DNA of 64,000 nucleotides from contig CAYSNL010000002.1 of assembly GCA_964432435.1 (NCBI GenBank), positions 18,454 to 82,453 on the forward strand. The letters run 5' to 3'. How positions within the stretch are numbered: position 1 is the stretch's first letter; each line of letters starts with the position of its first letter. This DNA comes from Candidatus Woesearchaeota archaeon (GTDB lineage: Archaea > Nanobdellota > Nanobdellia > SCGC-AAA011-G17 > JACPIM01). Shown piece by piece: positions 11,775 to 51,722 of the stretch. A program made the position numbers and the translations under genes. A model generated the notes under the pieces. It ran no database searches, had not been told where the DNA came from, and worked only from the letters and a program-made list of their open reading frames with translations.

Positions 11775-13028
11775 ATGAAAAAGGTTAGGTTTTTACTTTA
11801 CTCATTTATTTTTTTGATTTCTTTAAATTATAGTGGCGCTTTTTTAATAAGTCCTTCTTACTATAATGTTGATTTTGTACCTAATGATGAAAAAACTTTA
11901 ATAATATCTTTAATAAATAATAATAAGGAAGATATAATATTGGATACTTATATCAAAACTGTTTTTTTACATCCTATAGCGGTTGAAGAACTTAAGAATT
12001 CTTTTTCATTAAATACTAGCCAAATTCATTTTAAAGAAAAGGATAGTGTTATTGTTTTTGCTTTGAATATTAAATTTCCTGAAAAATTAACTTTAAACGG
12101 AACAAATGATTTAAGAGTTGGTGCTGTTGAAAGTGCTGGTGTTGGAGAAGTTGCTTTTAGAGCTGCAAACGAAGTCAGGATTTTAATTAAGAATGGTGAA
12201 GGGGAAGTGATAACTCCACCAATTGAAGCTAGTGTAAGTGGCACAGCAGGACAAAAAGGGATAGAGGGAGTTGCAAATTCTGGTAATAAGAAATTTTTAG
12301 ATATAGATGTATTGGGGATTACTGCAACAGATGTTTATCTCGGGGAGAAATCAGAAATTACAATAAAAATTAAGAATAATGAAAAATTTAAAGTATATAT
12401 AAGTGGGATAATAAATATATTTAATGATAAAGAGGTAGCAGAGACTATTAATATTCCTTTTACAGGTATAGACCCTTTAAAAGAGATTAATCTTTTAGCT
12501 TACTGGGACTCTAAATTTGCTTCTGTTGGAAAGTATAATGTAGAGGCTGCCATTACATATGATGGTGGTTCTAAAAAAGTGGCAACGACAATGAATGTTA
12601 AGGAAAGGACAGTTAGATTAATCCCTCCAACAAATATGATTTTAATTCCAGTAGGAATTTTGTTTTTAATCTTGTTTATTATTTTTTTAATCTTATTTTT
12701 GTTAAGCAGGAAAGAAGAAGGAATTGAAATTGTTAGCGTTAATGTTATTAACTTAATTCCTAATGGGGTTGCTGATATAGATATAAAATATAAAAATAAA
12801 GATAATAAAGAGTATAAAAATTGTTATTTAATTATTAATATTAAAAACTTAAATAATGTTTTAGTAGATTCAATAAAATCTAATGAAGAAAACATTAAAA
12901 AAAAGGGAGAGGGTTGTTATTCTTTTGGTTGGGATGCTAGGAATATTCCATCAGGGGTTTATATGGTTTATGTTACTCTTGGTTATGAGAATAAACAGAC
13001 TAGTAAAGTAGTTGAGGTTAAATTATGA
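11775..13028 (+). CDS. secreted protein with C-proximal membrane anchor
   Basis: Signal peptide 'MKKVRFLLYSFIFLISLNYSGA'; TM segment 'ILIPVGILFLILFIIFLILFLL' near residue 300; no recognisable domain. Confidence 0.4.
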   Translation: MKKVRFLLYSFIFLISLNYSGAFLISPSYYNVDFVPNDEKTLIISLINNNKEDIILDTYIKTVFLHPIAVEELKNSFSLNTSQIHFKEKDSVIVFALNIKFPEKLTLNGTNDLRVGAVESAGVGEVAFRAANEVRILIKNGEGEVITPPIEASVSGTAGQKGIEGVANSGNKKFLDIDVLGITATDVYLGEKSEITIKIKNNEKFKVYISGIINIFNDKEVAETINIPFTGIDPLKEINLLAYWDSKFASVGKYNVEAAITYDGGSKKVATTMNVKERTVRLIPPTNMILIPVGILFLILFIIFLILFLLSRKEEGIEIVSVNVINLIPNGVADIDIKYKNKDNKEYKNCYLIINIKNLNNVLVDSIKSNEENIKKKGEGCYSFGWDARNIPSGVYMVYVTLGYENKQTSKVVEVKL

Positions 13029-24920: not shown

Positions 24921-25490
24921 TTAAGAAAAACTTTGTCCGCAACCACACGTTGATGTTGCGCTTGGATTTGAGACCTTGAAACCTGCTCCTTGTAATGCCT
25001 CTACATAATCTATAGTTGAGCCTTTTATCATATCTAAACTTTCTTGGTCGATTAAAACTTTGACTCCGTTTTCTTCTATTACAATGTCTCCATCTTCTTT
25101 GGAATCTGTTAGTTCAAAATCATAATGATAGCCAGCGCAACCACCAGGACTAACTCTTATCTTTAATCCTTCTATGTGTTTTTTTTGGTTAGAAGCGATT
25201 TCCTTTAATTTATCCATCGCTTTTCTTGTTAACGTTATTTGTTTATTTTCTTCTATGTCTGTTATAGAGTCTGAAATAGTTTTATTAATTTCATCTACTA
25301 GTTTATTCATTTGTTCCTCTGTCATTCCGTGACCTAAGGTTCCCTGTTCTAAAGTTTCCCAATAAGATACATGGCAGCCTATACAGTGTAGGCCATTTGC
25401 TAACATGACCTCAATAGCTGCAGGGTATTTTTGGACTATATCTCCCATTGTCATGTCTTTTGTGACATGTTGTTGAATTGTCTTTTGCAT
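24921..25490 (-). CDS. DUF1858-like domain fused to A-type Fe-S carrier (IscA/HesB)
   Basis: C-terminus 'TCGCGQSFS' = IscA C-GCG-SF signature plus upstream Cys ('GGCAGY'); N-terminal 'GLHCIGCHVS' domain. Confidence 0.6.
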   Translation of the reverse strand: MQKTIQQHVTKDMTMGDIVQKYPAAIEVMLANGLHCIGCHVSYWETLEQGTLGHGMTEEQMNKLVDEINKTISDSITDIEENKQITLTRKAMDKLKEIASNQKKHIEGLKIRVSPGGCAGYHYDFELTDSKEDGDIVIEENGVKVLIDQESLDMIKGSTIDYVEALQGAGFKVSNPSATSTCGCGQSFS

Positions 25491-28414: not shown

Positions 28415-29677
28415 ATGAATAGAGGTTTTTTTATATTGCTTGTTTTAATACTAAATATGAATTTAGTTTTTTCTAGTAAAAATATTCCAGATGAATGTAT
28501 TTTTGTAAGTTCAAGTGATAAAAACAATTTAAACTTGATAGATGGTCCTAAGGTAGTATTACAGAAATATATTAATTCACAAGGTAATGAGGAAATTTTA
28601 ATGTTTTTTTATGAAAAAGATAAAAGTCAAGGTGATATAGGTGCTTTAAGGTTAATTTTAAATTATAAAAAAAGTGAAGATGTATACAGTTTTTGGTCTA
28701 CTAATTTAAATGAATGCAAAGAGAATGAAAATGGATGTAGAGAATATTTTATTAAGAAAGATATACCTGAAATTTGTAGAAGATCTGGTCTTGAAATAAT
28801 CAGACCTATACCCTCTAAAGAAGGTATAGAAGAAAAACTTAAAGGAATAAATATAATTGATAATTGTGCTAATCTACCCAAGGAGCCTTCTTATTGTTCA
28901 GATAATATATTTATAAGAGGTATTGGAAAGTTTTATTATTTTTTAAAATCTATTTTTAATCCTGAATTAAAATCTTTAGACCTAAATGAATGTAAAAAAA
29001 TAAATATAGTAATAACTGGCCAAGGTTTTATAAATGAACAAGAGAAAGGAGAATTTACAGATTTAGCAAGAGAGGCAATTATTGAAGGTTTTTTTAAAAA
29101 CGATGTAATATCTTCAAATGCTTTTAGATTTAATTTTTATTTGTTAGATCCTTCAAATGATTTTAATTGTGCGACTAATTGTTTAGGTATTGATCGGGCT
29201 CTTTGCTGTGATAATACGAAGATTATTAATAAAGTTTCAGAATGCCCTAATGATTTTGTTTATGTTTTTGTTAATTCTAATAAAGATGCTGGGAGCAGTA
29301 CCGGGGTTATTTCAATGTCCACTTCATTTAATTTTGATCCTGGTGTTGTTGAGCATGAACTAATAGGGCATGGAGTTGGTGATTTAAGGGACGAGTATGT
29401 TGATGAATATTTTAGAACTATTGGTGAAAAACCTGAAAGAAATTGTTATGGAGATAAAAGTTGTAGGGCTTGGTGTAAATCTAGCGATGATTGTATTATT
29501 GGGACTGGTTGTTTTGAGGGTTGTGAATTATCTGAATGGTATAGGCCACATAGAACTAGTTTCATGAAGGTCTCTGGGAGAGAGATTGGTAGATATAATG
29601 AGATATTAATATGCGAAAGGATAAAAGAGTTTACTAATAAAGTTTCAGGATATTGTAATGAAATAGGTGTAGAATGA
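28415..29677 (+). CDS. secreted Cys-rich zinc metallopeptidase-like protein (HExxH; M64-like)
   Basis: Signal peptide; 'VEHELIGHGVGDLRDEY' HExxGH...DEY block; more than 20 Cys. Confidence 0.4.
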   Translation: MNRGFFILLVLILNMNLVFSSKNIPDECIFVSSSDKNNLNLIDGPKVVLQKYINSQGNEEILMFFYEKDKSQGDIGALRLILNYKKSEDVYSFWSTNLNECKENENGCREYFIKKDIPEICRRSGLEIIRPIPSKEGIEEKLKGINIIDNCANLPKEPSYCSDNIFIRGIGKFYYFLKSIFNPELKSLDLNECKKINIVITGQGFINEQEKGEFTDLAREAIIEGFFKNDVISSNAFRFNFYLLDPSNDFNCATNCLGIDRALCCDNTKIINKVSECPNDFVYVFVNSNKDAGSSTGVISMSTSFNFDPGVVEHELIGHGVGDLRDEYVDEYFRTIGEKPERNCYGDKSCRAWCKSSDDCIIGTGCFEGCELSEWYRPHRTSFMKVSGREIGRYNEILICERIKEFTNKVSGYCNEIGVE

Positions 29678-30159
29678 GTAAAAAATATTTATTGATTTTA
29701 GCATTATTTTTAATAATTAATAGTGTTAACGCTGAAAGAATTTATTTATTTAATTTTAATTATGATAATGGAGAAATTTCTTTAATTAAGGTTAATAAAA
29801 TGGATGGATATGTTCCAGATATTAAAGAAGGTGATTATTCTTTTGTTATTTTAAATAAAAATAATAGGGTTTTAGATAAAACTGATTTTAAGATGCCTAA
29901 AGTGTTAGAGATTGTACCTACTGAAAAGTACAATGGCAAATATTTTGAATTGAAGAATTTTAATTTTACAATACCTTCTGACTATAAAAGGGGAATGGCT
30001 AAAATAAGAATTATGAAAGATAATGAACTATTATTTGAGGAAAATATAGAAAAATATAATTTAGGTTATGAGAATAATTATTGGACTTGGTTAATTTCTG
30101 GTTTAATTATTTTAATAACCCTTGTTGGTTATTTATTTTATAAGATAAAGAAAACTTAG
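29674..30159 (+). CDS. secreted protein with C-terminal TM anchor
   Basis: Signal peptide 'MSKKYLLILALFLIINSVNA', C-terminal 'WLISGLIILITLVGYLFY' helix. Confidence 0.35.
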   Translation: MSKKYLLILALFLIINSVNAERIYLFNFNYDNGEISLIKVNKMDGYVPDIKEGDYSFVILNKNNRVLDKTDFKMPKVLEIVPTEKYNGKYFELKNFNFTIPSDYKRGMAKIRIMKDNELLFEENIEKYNLGYENNYWTWLISGLIILITLVGYLFYKIKKT

Positions 30160-30761: not shown

Positions 30762-31943
30762 ATGGATTTAAAAGAAGAAGCACTAAAGATGCATAGGATA
30801 AATAAAGGTAAATTAGAGACAAGGTCTAAAATTTTAGTTGATACAAAGCAAAAATTAAGCTTAGTTTACACTCCTGGGGTCGCAGAGGTTTCTAAAGAAA
30901 TTGCACTAGATAAAACTAAGATATATGATTATACCTTTAAATCTAATTCTGTTGCTGTTATTACTGATGGCAGTGCTGTGCTTGGCTTAGGAAATATCGG
31001 AGCAGAGGCTTCATTGCCTGTTATGGAAGGTAAATGTGTTCTTTTTAAAGAATTAGCTAATATAGATGCTTTTCCAATTTGTATAAAAACACAAGAGGAG
31101 AGGGAAATAATAAATATAGTAAAAAATATAGCTACTGTTTTTGGTGGAATTAATCTCGAGGATATATCTGCTCCTAGGTGTTTTAAAATAGAAGAAGCTT
31201 TGCTCGATATTGGCATTCCTGTGATGCATGATGATCAACATGGAACAGCTATCGTTGTTTTAGCTGCTTTAATAAATTCTGTAAAAGTTGTAAACAAAAA
31301 AATTGAGAATTTAAAAGTTGTTATTAATGGAGCAGGAGCAGCTGGAATAGCTATAACTAAGCTACTGATGTGTTTAGATATAGATAAAAAAATATGTACT
31401 TCTGTCAAAGAAATAGTTCTTTGTGATAGCAAAGGTATTATTTATGATGGTAGGCCAGACTTGAATGAGTTCAAAACAAAAATGGCAAAGATAACAAATC
31501 AGTCTATGAGAAAAGGGACATTAAAAGATGCGTTAGAAGGAGCAGATGTTTTTATTGGTGTTTCAAGTGGGAATTTAGTAACAGCAAATGATTTAAAAAA
31601 AATGAATGAAAGGGCAATTGTATTTGCTATGGCAAATCCTGTCCCCGAGATAATGCCTGATGAAGCAAATAAAATTGCTGTTGTTGTTGGTACTGGTAGG
31701 AGTGATTTTCCGAATCAGATAAATAATTCTTTAGCTTTTCCTGGGGTGTTTAGAGGGGCTTTAGACGTGAAAGCAACTAAAATAAATAATGAAATGAAGA
31801 TTGCTGCTGCCTATGCGTTAGCTAATTATATAAAACCAACAGTAAATAATATATTACCTTATACTTTAGACAAGGGTGTTGTATCAAAAGTTGCGCAAGC
31901 AGTAAAGAAAGCAGCAATAGAAACAAACGTGGTTAGACATTAG
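30762..31943 (+). CDS. NAD(P)-dependent malic enzyme
   Basis: 'YTPGVAEVS', 'MHDDQHGTAIVVLAALINS', 'INGAGAAGIA' malic-enzyme blocks. Confidence 0.85.
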   Translation: MDLKEEALKMHRINKGKLETRSKILVDTKQKLSLVYTPGVAEVSKEIALDKTKIYDYTFKSNSVAVITDGSAVLGLGNIGAEASLPVMEGKCVLFKELANIDAFPICIKTQEEREIINIVKNIATVFGGINLEDISAPRCFKIEEALLDIGIPVMHDDQHGTAIVVLAALINSVKVVNKKIENLKVVINGAGAAGIAITKLLMCLDIDKKICTSVKEIVLCDSKGIIYDGRPDLNEFKTKMAKITNQSMRKGTLKDALEGADVFIGVSSGNLVTANDLKKMNERAIVFAMANPVPEIMPDEANKIAVVVGTGRSDFPNQINNSLAFPGVFRGALDVKATKINNEMKIAAAYALANYIKPTVNNILPYTLDKGVVSKVAQAVKKAAIETNVVRH

Positions 31944-31951
31944 TCTATCAT

Positions 31952-32617
31952 TTAAAGAATACATATACCTTCTTTCCCCTCTTTTTTGATTTTATACATA
32001 GCATGATCAGCTGTAGTTAATAAGGCATCTCTTATATCTTGAACATGATACCGATCTAATATTAAATCTCCAAAACCATTAACTTTACCTTTTTCTAGAG
32101 AACTTATTCCAGCACTAAAAGTAATTCCATTTACTTGATATTCTGGGAATATTATTCCAGTTGAACTTTTTTCATAAATTCTAGAAACAACGTGATTAGC
32201 TAATTTTTTACTAGCTTGTGGTAAGACTATAACAAATTCATCTCCACCAACTCTAGAAGCTTGATCATGTGGTCTTATTTGAGAAAGTAAACTTCTTGCA
32301 AATGCTTTCAAGATTTGGTCGCCTGCTTCGTGTTTATATGAATCATTTACTATTTTAAAATTATTAAGATCTAGGTAAGCAAGTGATAATGGTGGATGAT
32401 CTAGATTATGGTTTCTCATACTTCTTAGAATATTTTGAATTTCTTTTTCTAGGAATGTGTATAATCCTCTTCTATTTGGTATTTCGGTAAGAGGATCTAC
32501 AGTAGCCATTTCTCTATACATCATTAATTCGTGTCTAGTTACTTCAAGTTCATTTCTTAATCTAACTATTTCTCTTTCCAAGTTAGATTCCTGAGTTTCT
32601 TGTTGGTTGTTTGACAT
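31952..32617 (-). CDS. GGDEF-domain protein (diguanylate cyclase) with N-terminal coiled coil
   Basis: 'DPLTEIPNRRGL', 'LDLNNFKIVNDSYKHEAGDQIL', 'RVGGDEFVIVLP', 'SAGISS', 'ADHAMYKIKKEGKEG': all canonical GGDEF blocks, including an intact GGDEF. Confidence 0.8.
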   Translation of the reverse strand: MSNNQQETQESNLEREIVRLRNELEVTRHELMMYREMATVDPLTEIPNRRGLYTFLEKEIQNILRSMRNHNLDHPPLSLAYLDLNNFKIVNDSYKHEAGDQILKAFARSLLSQIRPHDQASRVGGDEFVIVLPQASKKLANHVVSRIYEKSSTGIIFPEYQVNGITFSAGISSLEKGKVNGFGDLILDRYHVQDIRDALLTTADHAMYKIKKEGKEGICIL

Positions 32618-32679
32618 GTAAAAAAGAAGACGAAGCCAATTTATAAATCTTTCGTTATGTTACTTTTGTTTAGTAGTGA

Positions 32680-33108
32680 TTATTTAACTATTAAATTTCC
32701 TTTCATTTCTTTATGTCCTGAACCACAAAATACATTACAGAAAAAAGTAAACTCTCCTGATTTATCAGCTATAAACTCTATAGTCTCAGTTTTACCGACA
32801 TCTACTTTCTGGCTTATTCCATATTCTGGAATAGCTATGCCGTGATTTACATCTGTACTTGTTAATTTAATCTTAACTTTATCTCCTTTGTTTACTGTTA
32901 TGGTTGATGGATCAAATTCAAATTTTTTTGCAGTCATATCTATTTCTACTGTTTTCCCAGTTAGTTGATAATTTGTATCGTCATTTCCTGTGTTTACTAC
33001 ATTAACTTGGGGTAAAGTTGTAGAAATTGTTTCTTGTTGTGTTTTAGACTGACATCCGGCCAAAATAAATAAGGCAAGTATTAAAAAAATTAATAAAATA
33101 TTTTTCAT
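32680..33108 (-). CDS. CuA-type cupredoxin lipoprotein
   Basis: Lipobox 'LAGC' after signal peptide; C-terminal 'FFCNVFCGSGHKEM' = C-x3-C-G-x2-H-x2-M CuA-type ligand set with upstream 'HG'; internal Met start (ORF-track start 33153). Confidence 0.6.
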   Translation of the reverse strand: MKNILLIFLILALFILAGCQSKTQQETISTTLPQVNVVNTGNDDTNYQLTGKTVEIDMTAKKFEFDPSTITVNKGDKVKIKLTSTDVNHGIAIPEYGISQKVDVGKTETIEFIADKSGEFTFFCNVFCGSGHKEMKGNLIVK

Positions 33109-33149
33109 AACTCTTTTTTTAAATTCTATTTTATTTAAAAACTTTTTCT

Positions 33150-33515
33150 TCAATCTCTAAATTTTGAGTCCAAACTTAATTTTTTATTTTCTGATAAAGA
33201 TAAAGATAAAAGAGCTGTAAAAATACCTAAATCCCTTACTGCAATATCATTATAACCCAAAGACATGATTATAGGAATCATGCTTATTGCTAGTAACAGA
33301 GAAGCCAATCTAGTAAATAAACCAATTATTAATAAAATTGCCATTAATACTTGAAAAATTGCCATTATAATTATTACTGTATTACCCGATATTGGAATAA
33401 GAGATGGTACTAAAGAAGACCAGATTTCCGGTTGTAGAATACTAGTTACACCAAACCACAGGAAAACTATTCCTAACCCTATTCTTAAAATTAATGTACT
33501 ATAGTCCTTAAGCAT
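33150..33515 (-). CDS. DoxX-family membrane protein
   Basis: 121 aa, 3-4 TM helices, 'RIGLGIVFLWFG' DoxX-like N-terminus; 4-nt overlap with the cupredoxin gene. Confidence 0.55.
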   Translation of the reverse strand: MLKDYSTLILRIGLGIVFLWFGVTSILQPEIWSSLVPSLIPISGNTVIIIMAIFQVLMAILLIIGLFTRLASLLLAISMIPIIMSLGYNDIAVRDLGIFTALLSLSLSENKKLSLDSKFRD

Positions 33516-33663
33516 AAAAAATAAAATATTCTTTAGTTTAAAAGTTTTTTTGAATATACTGGCTTTGTCTAAATAGTCTTCAAAACATTTTACTCTTTAC
33601 ACAAAAATTAGACTTTATACCCAAGAGTTACTTATTACACGAAGCTGAATATACTTAAATAAA

Positions 33664-34755
33664 TTAACCAAAAGTAAAAGCACTAAATTTAAATTCTTTT
33701 GATGAAGTTGTTAGTTTTAATGTGTAGGTCCCATATTTTGAATTAACCACGCTATATAGTCTTGCCTCTTTGATTAAAATAATTGCTTTGTTGTTTTTAA
33801 ACTGAACGTCAGATCCAGTCTGTTCTTTTGTTATTATATTACCGTCAATATAAACTTCTAATTCTATTGGTTTAATAGGTTTATCTGTTACTATATTAAC
33901 TGTTGATGCTGTGAATTTAAGAATTATAGATCCATTCTCGTCTTGATTTTCTAAGCTATCTGGATTGTTTTTCCACTTTCCATCCAAATAAAGCTTGTCT
34001 GGTTGAATGTCCTCTGGTGATTTGTAATCTACTATTTGGTCTGGTTTATATCCTTCTTTATTTCCTAAATTTTGTCCTCTTGGTGTTGCAAATTGATAAC
34101 CAGCATATGTTTCTGGTGTTATTCTGAACCTTATTGCTGTTTCTGGTTCTTTAGTCAAATTCATATTTGTTACATTCTCGCCTAATTCTTTTAATAGCTC
34201 TTGTATTTTCTTCTCTATTTCTTCATAATTACCTTCTCCAAAATGAAAATATTTTATATAACCATCTTTATCTATTAAATATTTAGCTGGCCAATATCTA
34301 TTTTCATAATTATTCCATGTAGAGTAATCATTATCCATTCCAACAGGATATTTTATTTTAAAATCTTTTACAGCCTGCTCAACGTTTTCTGTTTTCTTTT
34401 CAAAATCAAATTCAGGTGTATGAATCCCTATTATTTGCAATCCTTTTTTAGAATATTTTTCATCCCATTCTTTTAAATATGGCAAAGTTCTGATGCAGTT
34501 TATGCAAGTATAAGTCCAGAAGTCAACTAAAACCACTTTTTTCCCTTGAAATTCATTTATTGTTAGCGGATTTGAATTTATCCAGTGTTTAATTCCGATT
34601 ATCTCAGGTGCTTTGCCAGTTTCTGATTTTTCAGAAACGTTAATTATTTTACAACCTATACCTGGAATGCAAACTCCTCTTTCTACCATTATTATCACTC
34701 CTACTATTATGATTATAGTAAATATTAATAAAGTTCTTCTAATTCTGGTTTCCAT
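33664..34755 (-). CDS. membrane-anchored TlpA/AhpC-TSA-like thioredoxin-fold protein with extra C-terminal domain
   Basis: 'LVDFWTYTCINCIRTLPYL' Trx-like CxxC; ~150-aa C-terminal beta-rich extension. Confidence 0.65.
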   Translation of the reverse strand: METRIRRTLLIFTIIIIVGVIIMVERGVCIPGIGCKIINVSEKSETGKAPEIIGIKHWINSNPLTINEFQGKKVVLVDFWTYTCINCIRTLPYLKEWDEKYSKKGLQIIGIHTPEFDFEKKTENVEQAVKDFKIKYPVGMDNDYSTWNNYENRYWPAKYLIDKDGYIKYFHFGEGNYEEIEKKIQELLKELGENVTNMNLTKEPETAIRFRITPETYAGYQFATPRGQNLGNKEGYKPDQIVDYKSPEDIQPDKLYLDGKWKNNPDSLENQDENGSIILKFTASTVNIVTDKPIKPIELEVYIDGNIITKEQTGSDVQFKNNKAIILIKEARLYSVVNSKYGTYTLKLTTSSKEFKFSAFTFG

Positions 34756-35497
34756 TTTTTATTGTTATCGATGTCAAATAAACTAAAAATGCAGGTATTA
34801 ATGGTAATACACAAGGACTTAAAAACGAAATTAAGCCAGCCAAAAAAGCTATTCCTAGATTTATGGATGATCCTAAGTCTATGTAATTTAAATTAAATTT
34901 TAAAAGTAAATTTGCTACAAATGACAAATTTGCTATTTTAGCTAAATTGCTTGTGAAAACTAATATACCCATAGTAATTAATATAGTTCCAAAAATATAA
35001 TTTATGTATTTTAAATAAGGTAGCATTTTTTGAATAAATTTATTTGCCTGATTTGTGAATAATCCAACTAAAAGAAAAGGTATTCCTAATCCTAATGAAT
35101 AAGAAAACAATAATAAAAATGCCTTTGTTGGCTGTGTTATAGCTAATGTTAAAATTCCTCCTAAAATCGCACCTATGCAAGGAGTCCACCCAACTGCAAA
35201 AGCAGAGCCGAACAAAAATGATGCTACATATGAAGATCTAAATTTTCTTTTAATTTGAAATTTATGTTCTTTTTCTAGGAATGGTATTTTTAGTAAATTT
35301 AACAAATAAAGTCCAAAGATCATTATTATTATACCACCGACTCTGCTTAGCCATTTTAAAACTATTAAAGAAGAGTTTGAGAATATTGTTTGAAGTAAAA
35401 TACCGACTAATGAAAAAACTATGCTGAAACCAAGAACAAAGAAAAAACTATTAATAAAAATATTCCATTGATTTTTTGCCATATTTAACAACCACAC
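34739..35497 (-). CDS. ccdA: cytochrome c-type biogenesis/thiol-disulfide transporter CcdA (DsbD transmembrane core)
   Basis: Polytopic; conserved Cys in TM1 ('WTPCIGAILG') and TM4 ('FLSPCVLPLIP'); likely start at second Met (35482). Confidence 0.75.
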   Translation of the reverse strand: MWLLNMAKNQWNIFINSFFFVLGFSIVFSLVGILLQTIFSNSSLIVLKWLSRVGGIIIMIFGLYLLNLLKIPFLEKEHKFQIKRKFRSSYVASFLFGSAFAVGWTPCIGAILGGILTLAITQPTKAFLLLFSYSLGLGIPFLLVGLFTNQANKFIQKMLPYLKYINYIFGTILITMGILVFTSNLAKIANLSFVANLLLKFNLNYIDLGSSINLGIAFLAGLISFLSPCVLPLIPAFLVYLTSITIKNGNQN

Positions 35498-35813: not shown

Positions 35814-36122
35814 TTATTCTCTAGAAAAGCCAACTTTTACGCCTTCTGCTTTTGCGTAAAGCTCGAATAATTGCTGTATTTCGTTAGCATATTTTTGTGG
35901 AAAATTTCCCTTAAGTGTCACGCCAATTGCTCTGCTTTTGTCTGTTTGATGTTCTCTTAATCCACAAACTGCTTCAACCAAAAGGCATTCAAGAGTAAAA
36001 CCTCCTGTTCCTTGAACCATTCCTCTTGCTGGACTATATCTAACTTCATATCTATTTACATCCGCGCTTGAGTGTTCTGATTTTTCTCTTATAGGTTTTG
36101 CAATAAATGTTATATGATGCAT
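35814..36122 (-). CDS. hypothetical protein
   Basis: 102 aa, no recognised family. Confidence 0.3.
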   Translation of the reverse strand: MHHITFIAKPIREKSEHSSADVNRYEVRYSPARGMVQGTGGFTLECLLVEAVCGLREHQTDKSRAIGVTLKGNFPQKYANEIQQLFELYAKAEGVKVGFSRE

Positions 36123-36318: not shown

Positions 36319-36960
36319 ATGAAATATACTGTTATTGCTCCTGTTGGGGATTATATGGATGATTTATTTGTGGGTGTTAGAGAGTTTCCTACTGAGAGAA
36401 TTATCTTGGTTAGCTCCAAAGAAAGATTAAAAGATGCTGATGAGACTAAGAAAAAATTAGAGCAATTTAAGATACCTAGTCAGATCAAGGAAGTAAGAAG
36501 TGATACTCATATATGGGAGGCTACATTTGAAGCTATTGCACAGATTAAGGCGCTTGAGAAAGATAAAGAACTTTTGATTAATGTTAGTACTGGAGATAGA
36601 GAAACAAGATGTGCTGCAACATCTGCTGCCTTTGTTAACGGAATAAAAGCCTTTGGTGTAGATGGTAATGAGGCGATGTTATTGCCAATATTAAAGTTTT
36701 CATATTATAAAATATTAACTGATAAAAAACTAGAAGTCTTAAAGGTTCTTGCTAATGATCCTAAGTGTTGTGCGTCTTTAGATGAGTTAAGCAAAAAAAC
36801 AGGGATGAGCTTGCCTTTAATTAGCTATCACATTAATGGAACTTTAAAAAGTGAAGGTTTGAAAGAATTGGGTCTTGTTGAAACTACTGAAAAAAAAGGC
36901 AGAATGGAAATCAACTTAAGTATGATGGGTAGGTTATTAGTTAAGGGGTATATAAGATAA
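36319..36960 (+). CDS. putative ligand-sensing regulator: N-terminal Rossmann-like (CARF/Csa3-like) domain + C-terminal winged HTH
   Basis: 'MKYTVIAPVGDYMDD...ERIILVSS' Rossmann-like start; C-terminal 'LEVLKVLANDPKCCASLDELSKKTGMSLPLISYHINGTLKSEGL' ArsR-like wHTH. Confidence 0.4.
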   Translation: MKYTVIAPVGDYMDDLFVGVREFPTERIILVSSKERLKDADETKKKLEQFKIPSQIKEVRSDTHIWEATFEAIAQIKALEKDKELLINVSTGDRETRCAATSAAFVNGIKAFGVDGNEAMLLPILKFSYYKILTDKKLEVLKVLANDPKCCASLDELSKKTGMSLPLISYHINGTLKSEGLKELGLVETTEKKGRMEINLSMMGRLLVKGYIR

Positions 36961-38563: not shown

Positions 38564-39913
38564 ATGAAAAAAAGAGGGCAGGTTACTGTTTTTGTTATTA
38601 TTGGTTTTTTAATTTTAATAATTATTGGTGTTATTTTTTTTATAATTAGTGCTAAAAACAAATTTTCTGAAAGTGAAATTACTGCTTCTAGCATAGATGA
38701 GGTTAGAAGGCAAGTTAATTTGGATGTTAAATTATGTTTTGAAAATATTGTTGAAAATGGAATATTAGATGGGGCTAGACATGGAGGTAATGCTGTTTTA
38801 ATGAATAAACTTGGTTCTGATTCTGTTCGTGAGAGTGGGTTGGATATTTGTAAAACCTTGTTAACGGCTACACAAGAAATAAGACTTGCTTTTGGGCCAA
38901 ATAGGAAATATACTCAAGATAGTGTGTGTGTTTTATATGATTCTAATAACATTGCAATAAATGAAGAACAGATTAATGATGATACAGTGCTTAACTTTGT
39001 TAGTGCTCCTCTTGACCTTAATAATTTTGAGAATTCTTTAAAGAATTATCTTAGCGATAGATTACCTAGGTGTCTTAATGAATTTAATCAATATAAAACT
39101 AAAGGCTGGGGTATTGGGACATTGAATGTAGAAAACATTGATGATGTTGGTGGTGTTGCTGAGCTATTAAAACAACGTAAAGATGAATATATCATTATTA
39201 ATCCAGGATTTGATACTTCTTGTCCGATGGAGGGGAAATTTGTTGCTTCTTTGAAAATGCCTTTAAAATTTTCAAGAGTAAGGTCTATTGGCAATGAAGA
39301 GTCTTTTGTACTTGATAATCAGGAATTCATATATAATGCAAATCTTAAATATTTTTATACAAAATCAGATGAGCTATTAAAAGATCTTCTTTCTATCGGG
39401 TTTGAACAAACAAAAATTTCTGAAATGCCGAATGCTGGCGTATGTAAAAACTGTTGGGATATAAAGGATGGGCTTGTCGAATTTGAAAGAAAGGTTGAAG
39501 ATCCATCTTCTGGTGGTTGTGATGGCTGTCATTTTTACAAAGCTACAGATCCTAATACTGGTGCGTATTTTTTTAATATTAAATGTGGCGAGTATTTTAT
39601 GAGTTTAAATAATCCAATAAATGTTAATGGTAAGGAAATTGTTTTAAAAGAAGCTAATGTAGACAATATTATAGTTAGTGTTGATGGTGTTTCTGGAGAA
39701 ACAATTAATAAAGATTCTACTGTTGATGTTGGTGGTATTGACTTTACTTTTGATAATTATGATCAAGATACTGGGAAGGTTACTCTAATAATTGGGGAGA
39801 GTTTAAGTTACTTATGGGGTTATTATTTTGGTTGTAGTTCAAATGTTGATATTTGTTTTATAGAATGTGATAATAATATGGGGCCTGCAACAATGCAGCC
39901 TAATGATTGTTAA
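38564..39913 (+). CDS. Cys-rich secreted/anchored protein
   Basis: N-terminal TM 'VTVFVIIGFLILIIIGVIFFII'; ~17 Cys including a C-terminal 'GCSSNVDICFIECDNN' cluster. Confidence 0.45.
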   Translation: MKKRGQVTVFVIIGFLILIIIGVIFFIISAKNKFSESEITASSIDEVRRQVNLDVKLCFENIVENGILDGARHGGNAVLMNKLGSDSVRESGLDICKTLLTATQEIRLAFGPNRKYTQDSVCVLYDSNNIAINEEQINDDTVLNFVSAPLDLNNFENSLKNYLSDRLPRCLNEFNQYKTKGWGIGTLNVENIDDVGGVAELLKQRKDEYIIINPGFDTSCPMEGKFVASLKMPLKFSRVRSIGNEESFVLDNQEFIYNANLKYFYTKSDELLKDLLSIGFEQTKISEMPNAGVCKNCWDIKDGLVEFERKVEDPSSGGCDGCHFYKATDPNTGAYFFNIKCGEYFMSLNNPINVNGKEIVLKEANVDNIIVSVDGVSGETINKDSTVDVGGIDFTFDNYDQDTGKVTLIIGESLSYLWGYYFGCSSNVDICFIECDNNMGPATMQPNDC

Positions 39914-39914
39914 T

Positions 39915-40445
39915 ATGAAAAAAATAATTTTAATTTTATTTTTTGTAATGATTTTTGTTAGTCTGGTGAGTGCTAGTGGATTGTATCCTGTTTCTATGGA
40001 AGACTTAGTTCATCCGGCTTGTAATAATAATGGCAGATGCGATTATTTTGAAAGTTCTCAAACTTGTCCTAATGAATGTAATGCAGAAACTTTTAATACA
40101 GATACTGTTAGCGGTGAGACTAGTACTACTACAATAATTAGTTCATCATATACAACTATTCCTGTTATAAATGAACAAATCAATGAACAAGTGGATGAAA
40201 TTAATGAACAATCTTCTGTGGTTAGTATTATAGCAAAACAACCAGTAAAAATACCTTGGACTTTAATTTTGGCTTTTGGGTTTACTATTGGAATTATTTT
40301 TTTGGTTGTAGTACTTTATTTGTGGATTAAGGGACAAACTAAAACATCAAAACAAAGTGAAAATAAAAAAAGAAAGGTTAGATCTAATAATGAAGAAGAT
40401 GAATTTGGATTACCATCTAGGCCTAAACGCGGGTTTGGTGTTTAA
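39915..40445 (+). CDS. secreted Cys- and Thr-rich protein with C-terminal TM anchor
   Basis: Signal 'MKKIILILFFVMIFVSLVSA'; 'CNNNGRCDYFESSQTCPNECN'; Thr-rich linker; TM 'ILAFGFTIGIIFLVVVLYLWI' + basic tail. Confidence 0.4.
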   Translation: MKKIILILFFVMIFVSLVSASGLYPVSMEDLVHPACNNNGRCDYFESSQTCPNECNAETFNTDTVSGETSTTTIISSSYTTIPVINEQINEQVDEINEQSSVVSIIAKQPVKIPWTLILAFGFTIGIIFLVVVLYLWIKGQTKTSKQSENKKRKVRSNNEEDEFGLPSRPKRGFGV

Positions 40446-40869
40446 GTTTATAGGTTAGTATTAAGTTTATTATTATTAAAACATCTAATACTAAACAACC
40501 CATACAAAACGCTTTTAAAATAAAAATTTCTATGAACAATAAATAGAAAGCAAAGAATAAAGAAAATATGGTTAGCAAATAAATGTAATTAATGGTATGT
40601 TTCTCTTTTTCTGGATTTTTATAAGCTATTCTTGATAAAACCAAGATTACTGTGAAAAAGAGTATTCCTAAAAAAGCTACTGGAATACCTATCTTTGGTG
40701 GAAATAATGAGTAAATGCTTTTATTAACCACATCACAAGAAAAAATCTCTCCTATGTCGCAGAATCGTTTTCCTGGTTTAGAATAGTGCAAATAAATTAA
40801 ATAAATTGACACTAATGTTGATAATACAGAAGTAATTGAGATATAATTCAATAGTTTTTTTTCTTTCAT
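40423..40869 (-). CDS. vitamin K epoxide reductase (VKOR) family membrane oxidoreductase
   Basis: Four TM helices; loop Cys pair 'CDIGEIFSCD' and TM4 'CMGC' CxxC, the arrangement characteristic of VKOR. Confidence 0.6.
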   Translation of the reverse strand: MKEKKLLNYISITSVLSTLVSIYLIYLHYSKPGKRFCDIGEIFSCDVVNKSIYSLFPPKIGIPVAFLGILFFTVILVLSRIAYKNPEKEKHTINYIYLLTIFSLFFAFYLLFIEIFILKAFCMGCLVLDVLIIINLILTYKLKHQTRV

Positions 40870-40915
40870 CTTGTTTTTAGAAAAATTTATATTTATAACT
40901 CTTTTGATATTAAGA

Positions 40916-41695
40916 ATGATTAATTTTAATATTGACCCGGTACTTTTAAGATTAGGACCTATTCAAATAAGATATTATGGGCTTGTTTATGTTATTGGAC
41001 TTTTACTTGGTTTGTACATATTAAATAAAGCAAGGAAAAAAGGTATTTTGGATTTAAAAGATGGTCAAGAATATGATCTAATATTTTATATAATGTTGGG
41101 TATGTTGATTGGTGCTAGGTTATTTCATGTTATCTTTTGGGGTTTAAATTATTATATTAGTAATCCTTTAAAAATATTTTATTTGTGGGAAGGAGGAATG
41201 AGTTTTCATGGGGGTCTAATTGGTATTCTAGTAAGCGGATATATTTACTGTGAAAAAAATAAGATAAATGTGGCAAAACTAGCAGATGTTTTAACTTTAC
41301 CTGCTGTTTTTATTTTAGCCTTAGGGAGGATTGTAAATTTTATTAATCAAGAAATATATGGAACAATAACGGCTTTGCCTTGGTGTGTAGAATTTAAAAG
41401 CATAGAAGGTTGTAGACATCCTGTGCAACTTTATGCAGCTTTAGGTAGATTTATAGCTTTTTTTATATTATTAAAATTTGGAAATAAACATAAAGAAGGC
41501 TTTGTTTTTTGGAATTTTGTTTTTCTTTTTGGTCTAGGTAGATTATTTTTAGATTTTTTAAGAGAGGATATAAGATATCTTGGGCTAAGCTTTGGACAGT
41601 GGTTTAGCTTAATTATGTTAATTTTAAGCGGTTATGTTCTATTTAGATTTTATATGGAGGATATTAAAAAAGTATTTTCTTTTAAGAAGAAATAA
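40916..41695 (+). CDS. lgt: prolipoprotein diacylglyceryl transferase homolog
   Basis: 'IDPVLLRLGPIQIRYYGLVYVIGLLLGLYI', 'GARLFHVIFWG', 'PLKIFYLWEGGMSFHGGLIG' match Lgt signature blocks; ATG 40916 (ORF-track TTG start 40871). Confidence 0.7.
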   Translation: MINFNIDPVLLRLGPIQIRYYGLVYVIGLLLGLYILNKARKKGILDLKDGQEYDLIFYIMLGMLIGARLFHVIFWGLNYYISNPLKIFYLWEGGMSFHGGLIGILVSGYIYCEKNKINVAKLADVLTLPAVFILALGRIVNFINQEIYGTITALPWCVEFKSIEGCRHPVQLYAALGRFIAFFILLKFGNKHKEGFVFWNFVFLFGLGRLFLDFLREDIRYLGLSFGQWFSLIMLILSGYVLFRFYMEDIKKVFSFKKK

Positions 41696-42259
41696 ACCAA
41701 AGACTATAATTATTATACTTAAAATAAATGAATTAAAAAATAATTTATACGCAAAGTCTTTAAAAAATTCATAAGGGAATAAATTAATTAAATTATCTTT
41801 TGAAGGGTCTAATAAATATAAATCATTATTAAAGAGCAGTTTATGAAAAGTGTTGTTGAAAAAGTCCTCAAAATTTATAAAATAAAAAGATAAAATTATG
41901 ATTATTGATGTTATACCTGAAATTATGAGTGATTTTCCCAGGGTTTTATAGTTTAAGATTATTAGGACTATTAATAATACTATGATTATATACAATAAGA
42001 TTAATGTTTTGTATATTAGGTTCTTAACATCTTTTAAATGAAACTTTTCCCTTTCATTAAAGAAATCTGTTGTTAAATCTTTATTATTTTGGAAATAGGA
42101 GAACAGATTCTTTGTGTTTGTTAGTGCTAATTCTTTCGGTATGGAAATATTTAGTTTATCAAATTCCTTCTGATAGAAACTTAGGTTATAAATTAAAAGC
42201 CTAAAATTAAATAAAAAAATGAATAATACTAATATGATTATTAAAAGTGTTTTTCTCAT
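41639..42259 (-). CDS. polytopic membrane protein, unknown function
   Basis: 206 aa, 4-5 hydrophobic segments. Confidence 0.3.
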   Translation of the reverse strand: MRKTLLIIILVLFIFLFNFRLLIYNLSFYQKEFDKLNISIPKELALTNTKNLFSYFQNNKDLTTDFFNEREKFHLKDVKNLIYKTLILLYIIIVLLIVLIILNYKTLGKSLIISGITSIIIILSFYFINFEDFFNNTFHKLLFNNDLYLLDPSKDNLINLFPYEFFKDFAYKLFFNSFILSIIIIVFGLFLLKRKYFFNILHIKSK

Positions 42260-42396
42260 GGGTGTTAGATTTGATATATTTTAGTAAAATTAACTATAGT
42301 AAGCTTTATATATTAAACTTTTATTGTTTTTTAGGGATTATTAATATTACGGCTAAAATATGGATAATAATCAAATAAAAGGGTAGAAAACGAAAC

Positions 42397-43365
42397 ATGG
42401 GAGAAAAAATGGAAAATAATAGTGTTAATGATAAAAAATCAAGTTTCTTGGGTAAAATCAAGTTTTGGCAAATTTCTAGTATTGTGCTATTAATATTATT
42501 TGTAGTGTCTATAATAGCTAATTTTTCAGGCAGAGGTTTATCTGGTGCTATTAGTAAAGATGATGCACAAGGAAAAATACAGCAATATGCTAATATTGTT
42601 ACAGGTGGGGCTATTGTTGATGTTGGTAGTATATCTGATGACGGGGAAAATGGGTTGTATAAAGTACCTCTTACTGTAAAAGGGCAAATTATGACTGGTT
42701 ATATAACGAAAGATGGGAAATTATTTTTTCCTGCAGCTGTTAATCTAGATGATTTTTTTAAACAGGTTGGAGACATAGAGGGTAAAACAACTGAACTACT
42801 TGATAATGAGCAAGTTCAAGTACCTAATGAACCTGTTAGGGTTAGTGTAGATGACGATCCTGTTTTAGGGGATAAAAATGCTCCTGTGATTATTCTAGAA
42901 TTTAGTGATTTCCAATGTCCTTATTGTGGTAGATTTGAGAGCCAAGCCTTTGATCAAATTAAGAAAGATTATATTGATACTGGCAAGGTTAAGTTTGTTT
43001 ATAGGGATTTTCCATTAAACAGCATACATCCTTATGCACAAAAAGCTGCTGAAGCTTCTGAATGTGCCGATGAACAAGGGAAATACTGGGAATATCACGA
43101 TAAATTGTTTGAAAATCAGCAGGCTTTGACTGTTGAAGATTTAAAGGAATACGCAAAAGAATTAAAACTGAGCATAGATAAGTTTAACGATTGTTTAGAC
43201 TCAGATGCTATGGTGGAAGAAGTTCAGAAAGATCTTAGTGAAGGTGAAAGCTATGGTGTTACTGGTACACCTGCTTTTTTTATTAACGGTCTTTTATTAG
43301 AGGGAGCTCAGCCATTTGAGAACTTCAAGAAAATCATTGACGAGGAATTAAGCAAAACAGCTTAA
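42397..43365 (+). CDS. membrane-anchored DsbA-like thiol:disulfide oxidoreductase
   Basis: N-terminal TM; 'FSDFQCPYCGRFE' CPYC active site, 'GVTGTPAFFING' cis-Pro loop. Confidence 0.65.
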   Translation: MGEKMENNSVNDKKSSFLGKIKFWQISSIVLLILFVVSIIANFSGRGLSGAISKDDAQGKIQQYANIVTGGAIVDVGSISDDGENGLYKVPLTVKGQIMTGYITKDGKLFFPAAVNLDDFFKQVGDIEGKTTELLDNEQVQVPNEPVRVSVDDDPVLGDKNAPVIILEFSDFQCPYCGRFESQAFDQIKKDYIDTGKVKFVYRDFPLNSIHPYAQKAAEASECADEQGKYWEYHDKLFENQQALTVEDLKEYAKELKLSIDKFNDCLDSDAMVEEVQKDLSEGESYGVTGTPAFFINGLLLEGAQPFENFKKIIDEELSKTA

Positions 43366-50249: not shown

Positions 50250-51722
50250 TTATATATCTAGCAATTTATCTTGTGTGTATTGTTTGCCTGTTTTTAAAGC
50301 AATTTCTGCCTTTTGTAGTTCTGATCCTAAGTCTAGAGCATGGGAGATCTCTGATAGAACATTGTTATTTGCTAGTTGTGCAATTAATTCTCCGGCTACT
50401 TTTCCTTCATACTCTTTTATTGGTGAACTATCAGTGTTTAAGTGAGTTACTGTAATTTTTTCATTATTAAGTTTTATAATAAAATTTCCTTTTGGATCTT
50501 CTTTAAAATTTACTAAATTCCCCAATGGACTTGCCTTTATTAATTCTTTATCTCTATATTTTTCTATTATGTCTTTTGCATCTGTCCAGTTTTTTTCATA
50601 AATATGTGCACTACCGGAAATAATTGTTAATGTTCCTAGTTTTAGTTGTGTTTCTTTTGAGATTTCTTTTACTATATTGCCCTGTAATCTTCTTAAGGCA
50701 AATGCATTTCTTGGCCAGGCTTCATACATGTCATTACTTCTAATATAGGAGGTCATATGTAATGTATCGTCTTGTACTAGGCAATGTACAAAATTAATGC
50801 ATGGTGGTTCATCTCCTGATGAATCTTTATCATAATTCCAGGTAAAAGCTATTGCGCTTCTTTTATGTGGTTTTTTCTTTAATAGATCAATTATGAATTG
50901 GATTTGATCGACTTTTGTTCCATCTTTTAATTCTGCAGCTCTTAATCTTTGTCCATATGTGTAGTTTACATCCGGAATTTCTAGATTGGTTGTTACTTGA
51001 GGTATGTATCCTTCTAATTCTTCTTTGGTAAATTGAAAATACTCTTCCCATTTGTAATTGTCTGGGTCTTCATCTGAAATTACTGTTGAGATGTTGATTA
51101 ATTCTTTTTGGTCACCGCCATATGAAGAAGCTTTAGTAGCACCAAACCTCATGATATTATAAAGAATTTCCAGCCATGCGCTGCCAGTTGTTCTTTCCCT
51201 TATTTTATGAACTGTTGGGTCTGATGGGAATCTTTCTGGAGCTTCAATTTTATTTTCAGGGAATGTTTCTGGTTCTCCATAACTTGGTTTTTTTTCAAGT
51301 TCTTGTATTTTTACAGATATATCTGAGGGAGTTTTTCCTCTCATATCTATTATTTCTACGTTATTTCTGAAATTATCAATTGCTTCTTTTGGGATCGCTT
51401 TATGTAATTTAGAGTTTTGTATTCCTTTGATACAATGTTCTTCATCTACGCCTTTTTCTTTTAGTGCTAATAATGCCTCACCTGATTTTGCTAGGTCTTG
51501 TCCTGTTATAATTAGATATCTGATATTTTTATTAGCTAAACAATTCCTTATAAGAAAGCTTATTCCTCCATTAAAGTATAGTTGACCTATTGCTGAATAT
51601 AGGTTAGAATCTAAATTATCTGCAATTATCTTTCTAGGACTCCATAAAGTAATTACACCAATATTGGATTCTTGATTTCCTAGGATTACATTCTCTTTTT
51701 CATATAAAGGCCAATCAAACAA
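50250..51722 (-). CDS. thymidylate synthase (ThyA)-like domain with ~190-aa N-terminal and ~100-aa C-terminal extensions
   Basis: Core 'PPCINFVHCLVQDDTLHMTSYIRSNDMYEAWPRNAFAL' matches the ThyA active-site Cys-to-R-S-x-D block; flanking extensions unassigned. Confidence 0.65.
   Translation of the reverse strand: MFDWPLYEKENVILGNQESNIGVITLWSPRKIIADNLDSNLYSAIGQLYFNGGISFLIRNCLANKNIRYLIITGQDLAKSGEALLALKEKGVDEEHCIKGIQNSKLHKAIPKEAIDNFRNNVEIIDMRGKTPSDISVKIQELEKKPSYGEPETFPENKIEAPERFPSDPTVHKIRERTTGSAWLEILYNIMRFGATKASSYGGDQKELINISTVISDEDPDNYKWEEYFQFTKEELEGYIPQVTTNLEIPDVNYTYGQRLRAAELKDGTKVDQIQFIIDLLKKKPHKRSAIAFTWNYDKDSSGDEPPCINFVHCLVQDDTLHMTSYIRSNDMYEAWPRNAFALRRLQGNIVKEISKETQLKLGTLTIISGSAHIYEKNWTDAKDIIEKYRDKELIKASPLGNLVNFKEDPKGNFIIKLNNEKITVTHLNTDSSPIKEYEGKVAGELIAQLANNNVLSEISHALDLGSELQKAEIALKTGKQYTQDKLLDI

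Follow-up and report, generated by a model that had tools for sequence, protein, structure and literature searches.

The stretch studied here, referred to as the window, is a 64,000-nucleotide segment of a contig from a Candidatus Woesearchaeota archaeon (GenBank assembly GCA_964432435.1, contig CAYSNL010000002.1, positions 18,454 to 82,453). On its minus strand, at 31952-32617, lies an open reading frame (ORF) that starts with ATG and encodes a 221-residue protein composed of a coiled coil and a GGDEF domain, the catalytic domain of diguanylate cyclases (DGCs). A preliminary description, made from the letters of the window alone, had reported this ORF together with four blocks of GGDEF sequence, and all of them were present as described. 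NCBI records list this very protein for a 96,082-bp contig, of which the window is a part. We refer to this coding sequence (CDS) as the type-1 allele; a second type occupies the same slot in some related genomes. The gene stands behind a promoter of its own, next to a cupredoxin gene and between archaeal marker genes. We consider it rather likely that it is a genuine resident Woesearchaeota gene for a soluble, sensor-less DGC, the CDS of which has since been exchanged between two GGDEF lineages.

Domain, conserved residues and promoter of the GGDEF gene

A search with the GGDEF profile, which the preliminary description had proposed, placed the domain at residues 38-215 (31973-32506, minus strand). 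The PF00990 match reached 109.7 bits, far above the cutoff of 23.8, and covered profile positions 1-159 of 161, and TIGR00254 matched the protein with 116.3 bits (cutoff 37.4). The N-terminus, MSNNQ, matches the MANNQ of the orthologue at L031, a locus of related Woesearchaeota, which supports the chosen ATG as the start. The last helix of the domain is preceded by a clade-specific insertion of about 20 residues (approximately 175-196) that is common to the L031 orthologue and has no counterpart in the aligned bacterial homologues P0002 and P0004. It is at this insertion that the confidence of the AlphaFold2 model drops (predicted local distance difference test, pLDDT, of 71 in the block 181-190).

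Residue conservation was scored on an alignment of 80 sequences, namely the 221-residue protein and 79 homologues. All 13 invariant columns were kept (D41, D83, K88, N91, D92, H96, G99, D100, R122, E127, G170, D204 and K211). The A-site motif G124-G-D-E-F128 (32234-32248, minus strand) was intact, the make-up of its columns among the 80 homologues being G in 74, G in 79, D in 50 or E in 30, E in 80 and F in 78. The metal-binding acidic residues D83 and E127 were invariant in 80 of 80 sequences, and the guanine-recognising N91 and D100, like the phosphate-contacting K88 and K211, all fell in invariant columns. Judged from these kept catalytic residues, the domain is probably active, as had been proposed. 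The same cannot be said of the earlier statement that an RxxD I-site is absent. R115-P-H-D118 (32264-32275, minus strand) is followed by Q-A-S-R-V and then by GGDEF, which is exactly the canonical five-residue spacing, and it lines up with REYD of SiaD (7e6g) and RKSD of DgcR (6zxm). Its columns hold R in 68 and D in 70 of the 80 homologues, and the L031 orthologue reads RGND at this place. The motif would put the protein among the product-inhibited (I-site class) DGCs.

The N-terminal coiled coil that had been predicted from the letters was seen again by three approaches. The AlphaFold2 model was confident (pLDDT 92.8, predicted template modelling score 0.86) and depicted a helix at residues 3-38 (32504-32611, minus strand) leading into the GGDEF fold. 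In the heptad register from L13, the a/d positions are L, I, L, L, T, L, Y and A, seven of the eight being hydrophobic. The best fold matches in the PDB, obtained with Foldseek, were 3i5c (a fusion of the GCN4 zipper with WspR), 7e6g (SiaD) and 6ttr (the coiled coil plus GGDEF of DgcB), with E-values of 3e-15 to 3e-14, query-normalised TM-scores (TMq) of up to 0.79 (6ttr) and 22-28% identity in the structural alignments. A 36-residue N-terminal helix with heptads, together with fold matches to dimeric coiled-coil DGCs, suggests that this stalk may be the dimerisation element. No transmembrane or other hydrophobic segment was found in the 221 residues, and the protein is therefore considered soluble.

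The gene is preceded by an archaeal-type promoter (32640-32654, minus strand), in which a B recognition element (BRE)-like cgAAAGA is followed by the TATA box TTTATAAA at 32647-32640. Promoter and TATA box together read cgAAAGATTTATAAAt. The TATA box starts at -30 relative to the ATG, and no Shine-Dalgarno sequence was present ahead of this ATG, which implies a leaderless mRNA. The same geometry recurred in the window as a whole: TATA-like 8-mers peaked at -35 to -26 before start codons, with 25 of 60 falling in 10 of the 80 positions scanned, and this concentration 26-35 nt upstream of starts indicates archaeal promoters with leaderless mRNAs. The element AAAGRTTTATAAAT precedes the start codon by an equal distance in the related loci L030, L031, L038 and L039. 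The stop codon of the cupredoxin gene lies 62 nt from the GGDEF gene, and the latter, having its own promoter, is probably expressed. The pattern is genome-wide, a BRE-like AAAG(G/C/A) plus TTTAWAWA beginning 26-35 nt before start codons, for example at 8053, 16012, 24921-25490, 35814-36122, 54390 and 54899. Genes with such BRE/TATA elements mostly had no Shine-Dalgarno sequence, their mRNAs being mostly leaderless, and operon-internal genes often showed GGAGG-like sites instead.

Archaeal residency, gene neighbourhood and origin

Archaeal or eukaryal-type markers flank the GGDEF gene on both sides. These are diphthine synthase at 8053-8778 (TIGR00522, 268.8 bits against a cutoff of 114.3), RNase P p30 at 54390-54869, the archaeal proteasome alpha subunit at 58079-58813 (305.5 bits against a cutoff of 287.35), and SBDS, Rrp4, Rrp41 and Rrp42 at 58.8-61.7 kb, so that the archaeal character given to the surrounding genes in the preliminary description was confirmed. 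Clustered at 90% identity, the SufB protein of the window groups with proteins that bear the names Candidatus Woesearchaeota archaeon and Nanoarchaeota archaeon. Five contigs, separately assembled from five sequencing runs, were 100% identical to the window and jointly span 31019-34261, including both junctions of the GGDEF gene. The accessions of the runs and assemblies were also looked up in the literature, which gave nothing on the source environment. The composition of the gene was that of its host (GC content 0.306, GC at third codon positions 0.135, codon-usage z-score +0.84 relative to the other 71 genes), and the tetranucleotide correlation with the whole window was at least 0.95 in every 4-kb segment. 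The reproducible junctions, the host-like composition, the promoter and the synteny across lineages refute the chimerism that had been feared at first. The GGDEF gene is native to a Woesearchaeota (DPANN) genome, and contamination is effectively excluded.

The genes upstream of the GGDEF gene, all on the minus strand, were those named before. The immediate neighbour encodes a CuA-type cupredoxin lipoprotein (32680-33153; Pfam Cupredoxin_1 and COX2; lipobox LAGC) with a C-x3-C-x3-H-x2-M motif; its translation probably begins at the ATG at 33108 rather than at the TTG listed at 33153. It is preceded by a DoxX-family membrane protein (33150-33515; Pfam), which overlaps the cupredoxin ORF as listed by 4 nt and was syntenic in all five lineages, by a TlpA-like redoxin with a Thioredoxin_10 domain (33664-34755; Pfam) and by CcdA/DsbD_TM (34739-35497; Pfam). 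The order CcdA-TlpA-DoxX-cupredoxin-GGDEF was found again in L030 (GCA_016188045.1, Ca. Woesearchaeota) and in L031-L033, these being the contigs of the two closest TlpA proteins (83-84% identity). A cupredoxin-anchored scan of Joint Genome Institute (JGI) metagenomes showed the same DoxX-cupredoxin-GGDEF arrangement in L038 and L039. The protein at L031, P0253 (244 residues), is a true orthologue, 50% identical (E 1e-67), which keeps an intact RIGGDEF and has a longer coiled coil than the window protein. More distant Woesearchaeota, with TlpA proteins 52-59% identical, keep the CcdA-TlpA pair with no GGDEF gene nearby, and none was found near the more distant cupredoxin loci L040 and L041 either. 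Since synteny and promoter are conserved and the distant relatives do not carry it, the GGDEF gene is inherited within a narrow Woesearchaeota subclade.

On its other side, the GGDEF gene is convergent with a malic enzyme gene (30762-31943, plus strand), only 8 nt apart. At this place the relatives (L030 7526-9239, L031 13416-15133) have a small ORF, then GTP cyclohydrolase I, 6-pyruvoyl tetrahydropterin synthase (PTPS) and a short-chain dehydrogenase/reductase (SDR). Beyond the malic enzyme, genes for glutaredoxin, two unannotated secreted proteins and ThiF are again syntenic with the relatives.

Searches for the origin of the gene disclosed no close relative outside the clade. In a word-indexed search of 5.8 billion proteins, the protein retrieved itself and then matches of up to 44% identity, the three best-scoring ones being 31-33% identical; this search missed the 50%-identical P0253, which was found by synteny and later by profile search. 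When 1.84 billion representatives were searched exhaustively with HMMER, only two proteins exceeded 140 bits, the protein itself (457 bits) and P0253 (195 bits, 51% identity), below which the scores fell to 137 bits, and no match listed was above 43% identity. Among GTDB species representatives, 23 of 23 related loci were bacterial, and all named matches outside the clade were bacterial as well, with at most 43% identity. Two near-full-length matches whose surroundings were examined, P0002 and P0004, have neighbours typical of bacteria, flagellar genes around one and Lgt plus SLT/LysM genes around the other, Lgt being no safe bacterial marker here as this archaeon also encodes it. A bacterial donor could not be named, since neither the word-indexed search, nor the GTDB representatives, nor HMMER offered one above 43% identity outside the clade. 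The natural reading of these similarities is that the gene is ultimately of bacterial type and of lateral origin.

That part of the earlier suggestion of a laterally acquired module holds up, but a recent co-acquisition of the whole CcdA/TlpA/DoxX/CuA operon does not, as CcdA-TlpA is widespread and the GGDEF gene has its own promoter. Of the thousands of homologues of TlpA, those with names among the top 120 are all from Woesearchaeota, Nanoarchaeota, Nanoarchaeia or an unclassified archaeon, and the CcdA-TlpA pair is therefore old in Woesearchaeota. Its wide occurrence there in the absence of GGDEF rules out that the latter was acquired together with the whole redox operon.

Two GGDEF types in one slot

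The same slot holds a type-1 allele in the window and in L031 (12461-13195) and a type-2 allele in L030 (6516-7313), L038 (3354-4163) and L039 (5453-6226). Type-2 proteins have 257-269 residues, no coiled coil and an insertion of about 40 residues ahead of the motif, and they differ from type 1 by the changes K88 to H and D92 to E and by S/K/D in place of N48/R49/R50. The copy in L039 is intact (GGEEF, 86.7 bits with Pfam), whereas that in L030 is degenerate (GQGEEF, several invariant residues lost, 46.1 bits) and in that of L038 an IS200-like Y1 transposase (L038 2951-3361, minus strand; Y1_Tnp, 96.4 bits) interrupts the reading frame some 41 codons from its start. This insertion reveals that mobile elements have been active at the slot.

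In L030 and L031, which are closely related (80-99% identity between their flanking proteins), the nucleotide sequences agree at 78-97% as far as the start codon, at 7-58% within the CDS and at 85-92% once more from the stop codon, so that the limits of the replacement fall on the start and stop codons. The flanks support the tree ((L030, L031), (L038, L039)) with the window as outgroup, and the distribution of the alleles (type 2 in L030, L038 and L039; type 1 in L031 and the window) does not fit it. Protein identity within each type is only 50-53%, compared with 65-94% for the flanking genes, and the slot gene evolves fastest among the 11 syntenic genes compared.

The ratio of non-synonymous to synonymous divergence (omega) and the proportion of synonymous differences (pS) were obtained by the Nei-Gojobori method. 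For type 1, the window and L031 gave an omega of 0.27 (pS 0.66); for type 2, L038 and L039 gave 0.125 (pS 0.35) and L030 and L039 gave 0.22 (pS 0.68). The flanking genes of the same three pairs had an omega of 0.07-0.23 and a pS of 0.37-0.60, the latter being 0.45-0.60 in the two distant pairs, for which synonymous divergence (dS) is near saturation and both omega and the inference of older alleles are approximate. As judged from these values, both types are under purifying selection.

Two other explanations of the slot were considered. Gradual decay as the cause of the difference between L030 and L031 is ruled out by the codon-exact boundaries, the intact ORFs, the raised synonymous divergence and the intact type-2 gene of L039. 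A recent derivation of type 2 from type 1 is not supported either, since bacterial GGDEF proteins match type 2 at least as well (E 1e-17 to 1e-18) as type 1 does (E 1e-13 to 1e-14), in a comparison set biased towards relatives of type 1. The simplest reading of the sequences is that two old GGDEF lineages, both having been functional, were swapped via the conserved flanks. A second divergent block limited to a CDS, that of the SDR gene (L030 8475-9239 against L031 14384-15133; 28-65% nucleotide identity, flanks about 82-95%), indicates that this mosaicism is not unique to the GGDEF slot.

Proposed function, rival explanations and known systems

We believe that a resident, exchangeable gene for a soluble DGC is a rather probable explanation of these results; enzymatic activity, dimerisation, the identity of the product and downstream signalling are ascribed to it on the strength of its family. 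The ancestor of a narrow Woesearchaeal subclade would have acquired a bacterial-type GGDEF gene, which came to lie downstream of the DoxX-CuA cupredoxin pair under the control of an archaeal promoter of its own. Its CDS would then have been exchanged, by homologous recombination in the conserved flanks, between two deeply divergent, old GGDEF lineages. In the protein, the N-terminal coiled coil would form a parallel dimer joining two GGDEF domains, each of which would bind one GTP(-Mg2+), with D83 and D126/E127 coordinating the metal, N91 and D100 reading the guanine, and K88, K211 and K215 contacting the phosphates. The two GTP molecules would condense to cyclic di-GMP (c-di-GMP), which might then bind the RxxD I-site (R115, D118) and so limit output. 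Lacking a sensor domain, the cyclase would depend for its output mainly on transcription driven by the BRE/TATA promoter, or else on a partner that attaches to the stalk. The idea raised in the preliminary description, of a symbiont that makes a bacterial second messenger, is conceivable.

Several observations weigh against a working cyclase of this kind. No EAL, HD-GYP or PilZ domain was detected among the approximately 72 ORFs scanned in the 64 kb of the window, nor among the genes called in L030-L033 according to their precomputed Pfam assignments (at most about 21 kb for each relative), and Rfam revealed no c-di-GMP riboswitch in the window or in four related loci. Residue K95 stands where 76 of the 80 homologues carry Gly, within the xxGHxxGD next to the guanine-binding residues, and the L031 orthologue retains the Gly. 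The slot tolerates loss, as the degenerate copy of L030 and the split one of L038 make clear, and its function is dispensable in at least some lineages. To this can be added the approximate nature of the omega values in the distant pairs, and the report that c-di-GMP was undetected in two model archaea, Haloferax and Sulfolobus (Braun 2021, PMC8646023).

Such observations bring up the alternative that the protein is catalytically weak or dead, either as a relic near loss or as a GGDEF domain reused for non-enzymatic purposes (protein-protein interaction, nucleotide binding) in an organism with no c-di-GMP signalling. The G-to-K change at the near-invariant residue 95, the lack of turnover or receptor genes in the sequence scanned, the decay of the slot gene in L030 and L038, a non-synonymous divergence (dN) about 5 times that of TlpA and the failure to detect c-di-GMP in model archaea (PMC8646023) would all agree with it. 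We nevertheless regard it as unlikely, because the two type-1 proteins, at 50% identity, still have the I-site and every invariant residue for catalysis and for the binding of metal and base, a retention expected from selection on catalysis and feedback control. Moreover, an omega of about 0.27 is well below 1, and the dedicated promoter is conserved in every lineage examined.

At the other extreme, a DPANN subclade might run a working c-di-GMP circuit with non-canonical receptors, in which two ancient and functionally different GGDEF lineages, one a canonical cyclase under feedback inhibition and the other a variant with an insertion and changed conserved residues, recombine in a promoter-driven slot. 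We hold this bolder version to be improbable as well, though worth keeping in view: if true, the circuit would be the first concrete, testable case in Archaea, and a recombining c-di-GMP slot would point to selection on signalling output tied to a symbiotic or surface-attached life. A candidate effector in the window is a family 2 glycosyltransferase (4757-5761, minus strand), whose class is a classic bacterial target of c-di-GMP. Its best NCBIfam match is PgaC/IcaA, the poly-beta-1,6-N-acetylglucosamine synthase (129.9 bits, below the cutoff of 422), and no PilZ domain was detected in it. A further candidate, as a receptor, is a regulator of the HFX_2341 type at 36319-36960.

It is also conceivable, although we give it little credence, that the cyclase is the cytoplasmic output of an envelope redox/copper module made of CcdA, TlpA, DoxX and the CuA cupredoxin, and that its activity or expression reports extracytoplasmic thiol, copper or oxygen status, perhaps by way of a stalk-binding partner, as when SiaC binds SiaD. 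Bacterial c-di-GMP is often tied to redox and oxygen sensing. The adjacency of cupredoxin and GGDEF genes is strictly conserved in five lineages, and SiaD, a stalk-regulated DGC, is the best PDB match by sequence and the second best by fold. However, co-transcription is not required, as a separate promoter serves the GGDEF gene, 62 nt past the cupredoxin stop codon; the cyclase has no sensor domain; no SiaA/B/C-like genes were found nearby, and the SiaD equivalog model scored 108.6 bits against a cutoff of 290; and CcdA-TlpA occurs without GGDEF in other Woesearchaeota. The adjacency may merely mirror the history of insertion.

Very unlikely, in our view, is an inter-organism role, towards a host of the episymbiont or a virus, in which a partner cell would be the target of the protein or its product, and diversifying or balancing selection would maintain the two allele families. 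As a rule, DPANN archaea depend on a host. This scenario would fit a replacement confined to the CDS and in conflict with the flank phylogeny, a synonymous divergence of the slot above that of the flanks (pS 0.66-0.68 against 0.45-0.60) and the fastest evolution among the 11 syntenic genes. Yet the protein is soluble and carries neither signal peptide nor secretion signal, the omega values, well below 1, give no hint of positive selection, and the SDR block shows that mosaicism is not specific to the slot. Neither is there a match to a known defence system: PADLOC gave none for the type-1 or the type-2 protein or for the unannotated neighbours, so that a defence-system role was rejected. Lastly, that a bacterial GGDEF fragment was joined to an archaeal contig in assembly or binning, the default concern for GGDEF genes in archaeal metagenome-assembled genomes (Galperin 2018, PMC5847659; Romling 2022, PMC10086821) and one fed by the bacterial nature of all named homologues outside the clade, has next to no probability in view of the two junctions at 100% identity in five separate per-run assemblies, the recurrence of the gene order in four further lineages, assembled independently in different projects, the host-typical codon usage and tetranucleotides with no deviating 4-kb stretch between the gene and the markers on either side, the adjacent TlpA with only archaeal named relatives among its top 120 matches, and a promoter geometry that is the genome's own.

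Some other features of the window deserve mention. A bacterial-type lipoprotein/disulfide cluster at 40423-43365 comprises VKOR (40423-40869, minus strand), Lgt (40871-41695, plus), Lit (41639-42259, minus) and a DsbA-like protein (42397-43365, plus). Lgt passed the NCBIfam equivalog TIGR00544 (160.9 bits against 118.9), and Lit was assigned to its family by Pfam. Synteny of the cluster extends to related Woesearchaeota (e.g. L031 296-4652), and the window encodes proteins bearing a lipobox, among them the cupredoxin beside the GGDEF gene (LAGC). According to a paper of 2025 in Nat Commun (PMC12462473), no homologue of the bacterial Lgt had been identified in archaea, and AliA/AliB are proposed there in its stead; a DPANN archaeon with a genuine Lgt would deserve attention. 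Another ORF (50250-51722, minus strand) encodes an unusual 490-residue fusion in which an MtrA-like N-terminus is joined to an archaeal-type thymidylate synthase and, at the C-terminus, to a pterin-binding DUF4346 domain. ORFs of 420 and 161 residues (28415-30159, plus strand), 417 residues (11775-13028) and 449 residues (38564-39913) had no Pfam or PADLOC match. The first two form a pair that is kept in L030 and L031 at only 58-60% identity and has N-terminal hydrophobic segments; its products are probably secreted or surface-located. Neither a tRNA gene (ARAGORN) nor an RNA family at gathering score (Rfam) was found in the 64 kb.

With regard to known proteins, the window protein is a conventional member of the very large GGDEF family. 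Like the DgcB fragment of Caulobacter (6ttr), SiaD of Pseudomonas (7e6g) and GCN4-WspR (3i5c), it runs from one long N-terminal helix straight into the GGDEF domain, and it shares with stalk-GGDEF cyclases, to which its architecture comes closest, an intact GG(D/E)EF and an RxxD five residues upstream. It departs from them in having only 221 residues, with no REC, transmembrane or other sensory module, in the insertion of about 20 residues, in K95 in place of Gly, and in being encoded in an archaeon behind a TATA/BRE promoter. SiaD gave the best PDB match by sequence, but the equivalog NF038266 did not assign the protein to SiaD (108.6 bits against a cutoff of 290) and no SiaA/B/C partners were among its neighbours. 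In comparison with PleD of Caulobacter, the reference DGC, the REC domains are absent. We take PleD D327, K332, N335, D344, R359xxD362, R366, G368GEEF372 and K442 to correspond to D83, K88, N91, D100, R115xxD118, R122, G124GDEF128 and K211, and PleD R446 presumably corresponds to K215, in whose column 38 of the 80 homologues carry R and 26 carry K. Hypr GGDEF proteins, which produce cyclic GMP-AMP (cGAMP), reportedly carry Ser at the equivalent of PleD D344, as Hallberg et al. are said to have found in 2016. The window protein has D100 there, a position that is Asp in 80 of 80 homologues, and Asp instead of Ser favours GTP specificity.

With regard to Archaea, c-di-GMP signalling had been called very rare in the preliminary description. 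This needs qualifying, since Braun 2021 (PMC8646023) counted more than 300 BLAST matches to GGDEF in archaeal records, many of them Asgard and DPANN, although such matches are held to be unconfirmed (PMC5847659, PMC10086821). Galperin 2018 (PMC5847659) accepted one archaeal GGDEF protein, CAJ37382 of Methanocella arvoryzae, doubted others and described those of Ca. Micrarchaeum as REC plus an inactivated GGDEF, and according to Romling 2022 (PMC10086821) GGDEF proteins in archaeal contigs need confirmation. The present case resembles the earlier ones in being a bacterial-type domain in archaeal sequence, in a group, DPANN, already named as carriers. Unlike the Micrarchaeum proteins as described, its GGDEF domain appears catalytically intact, and unlike the earlier archaeal cases its residency was tested by promoter, codon usage, multi-assembly junctions and cross-lineage synteny. 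Archaeal GGDEF matches were thus known before but never validated; what is new is the validation of one native gene and the description of a two-allele slot. With the archaeal use of c-di-GMP in question, the locus provides a well-validated, archaeal-resident candidate with its own promoter and signs of purifying selection. Its product, being small, soluble and easy to express, with catalytic and feedback residues in place, is a good experimental entry point, and the slot itself illustrates how laterally acquired signalling genes may be domesticated and then exchanged in DPANN populations.

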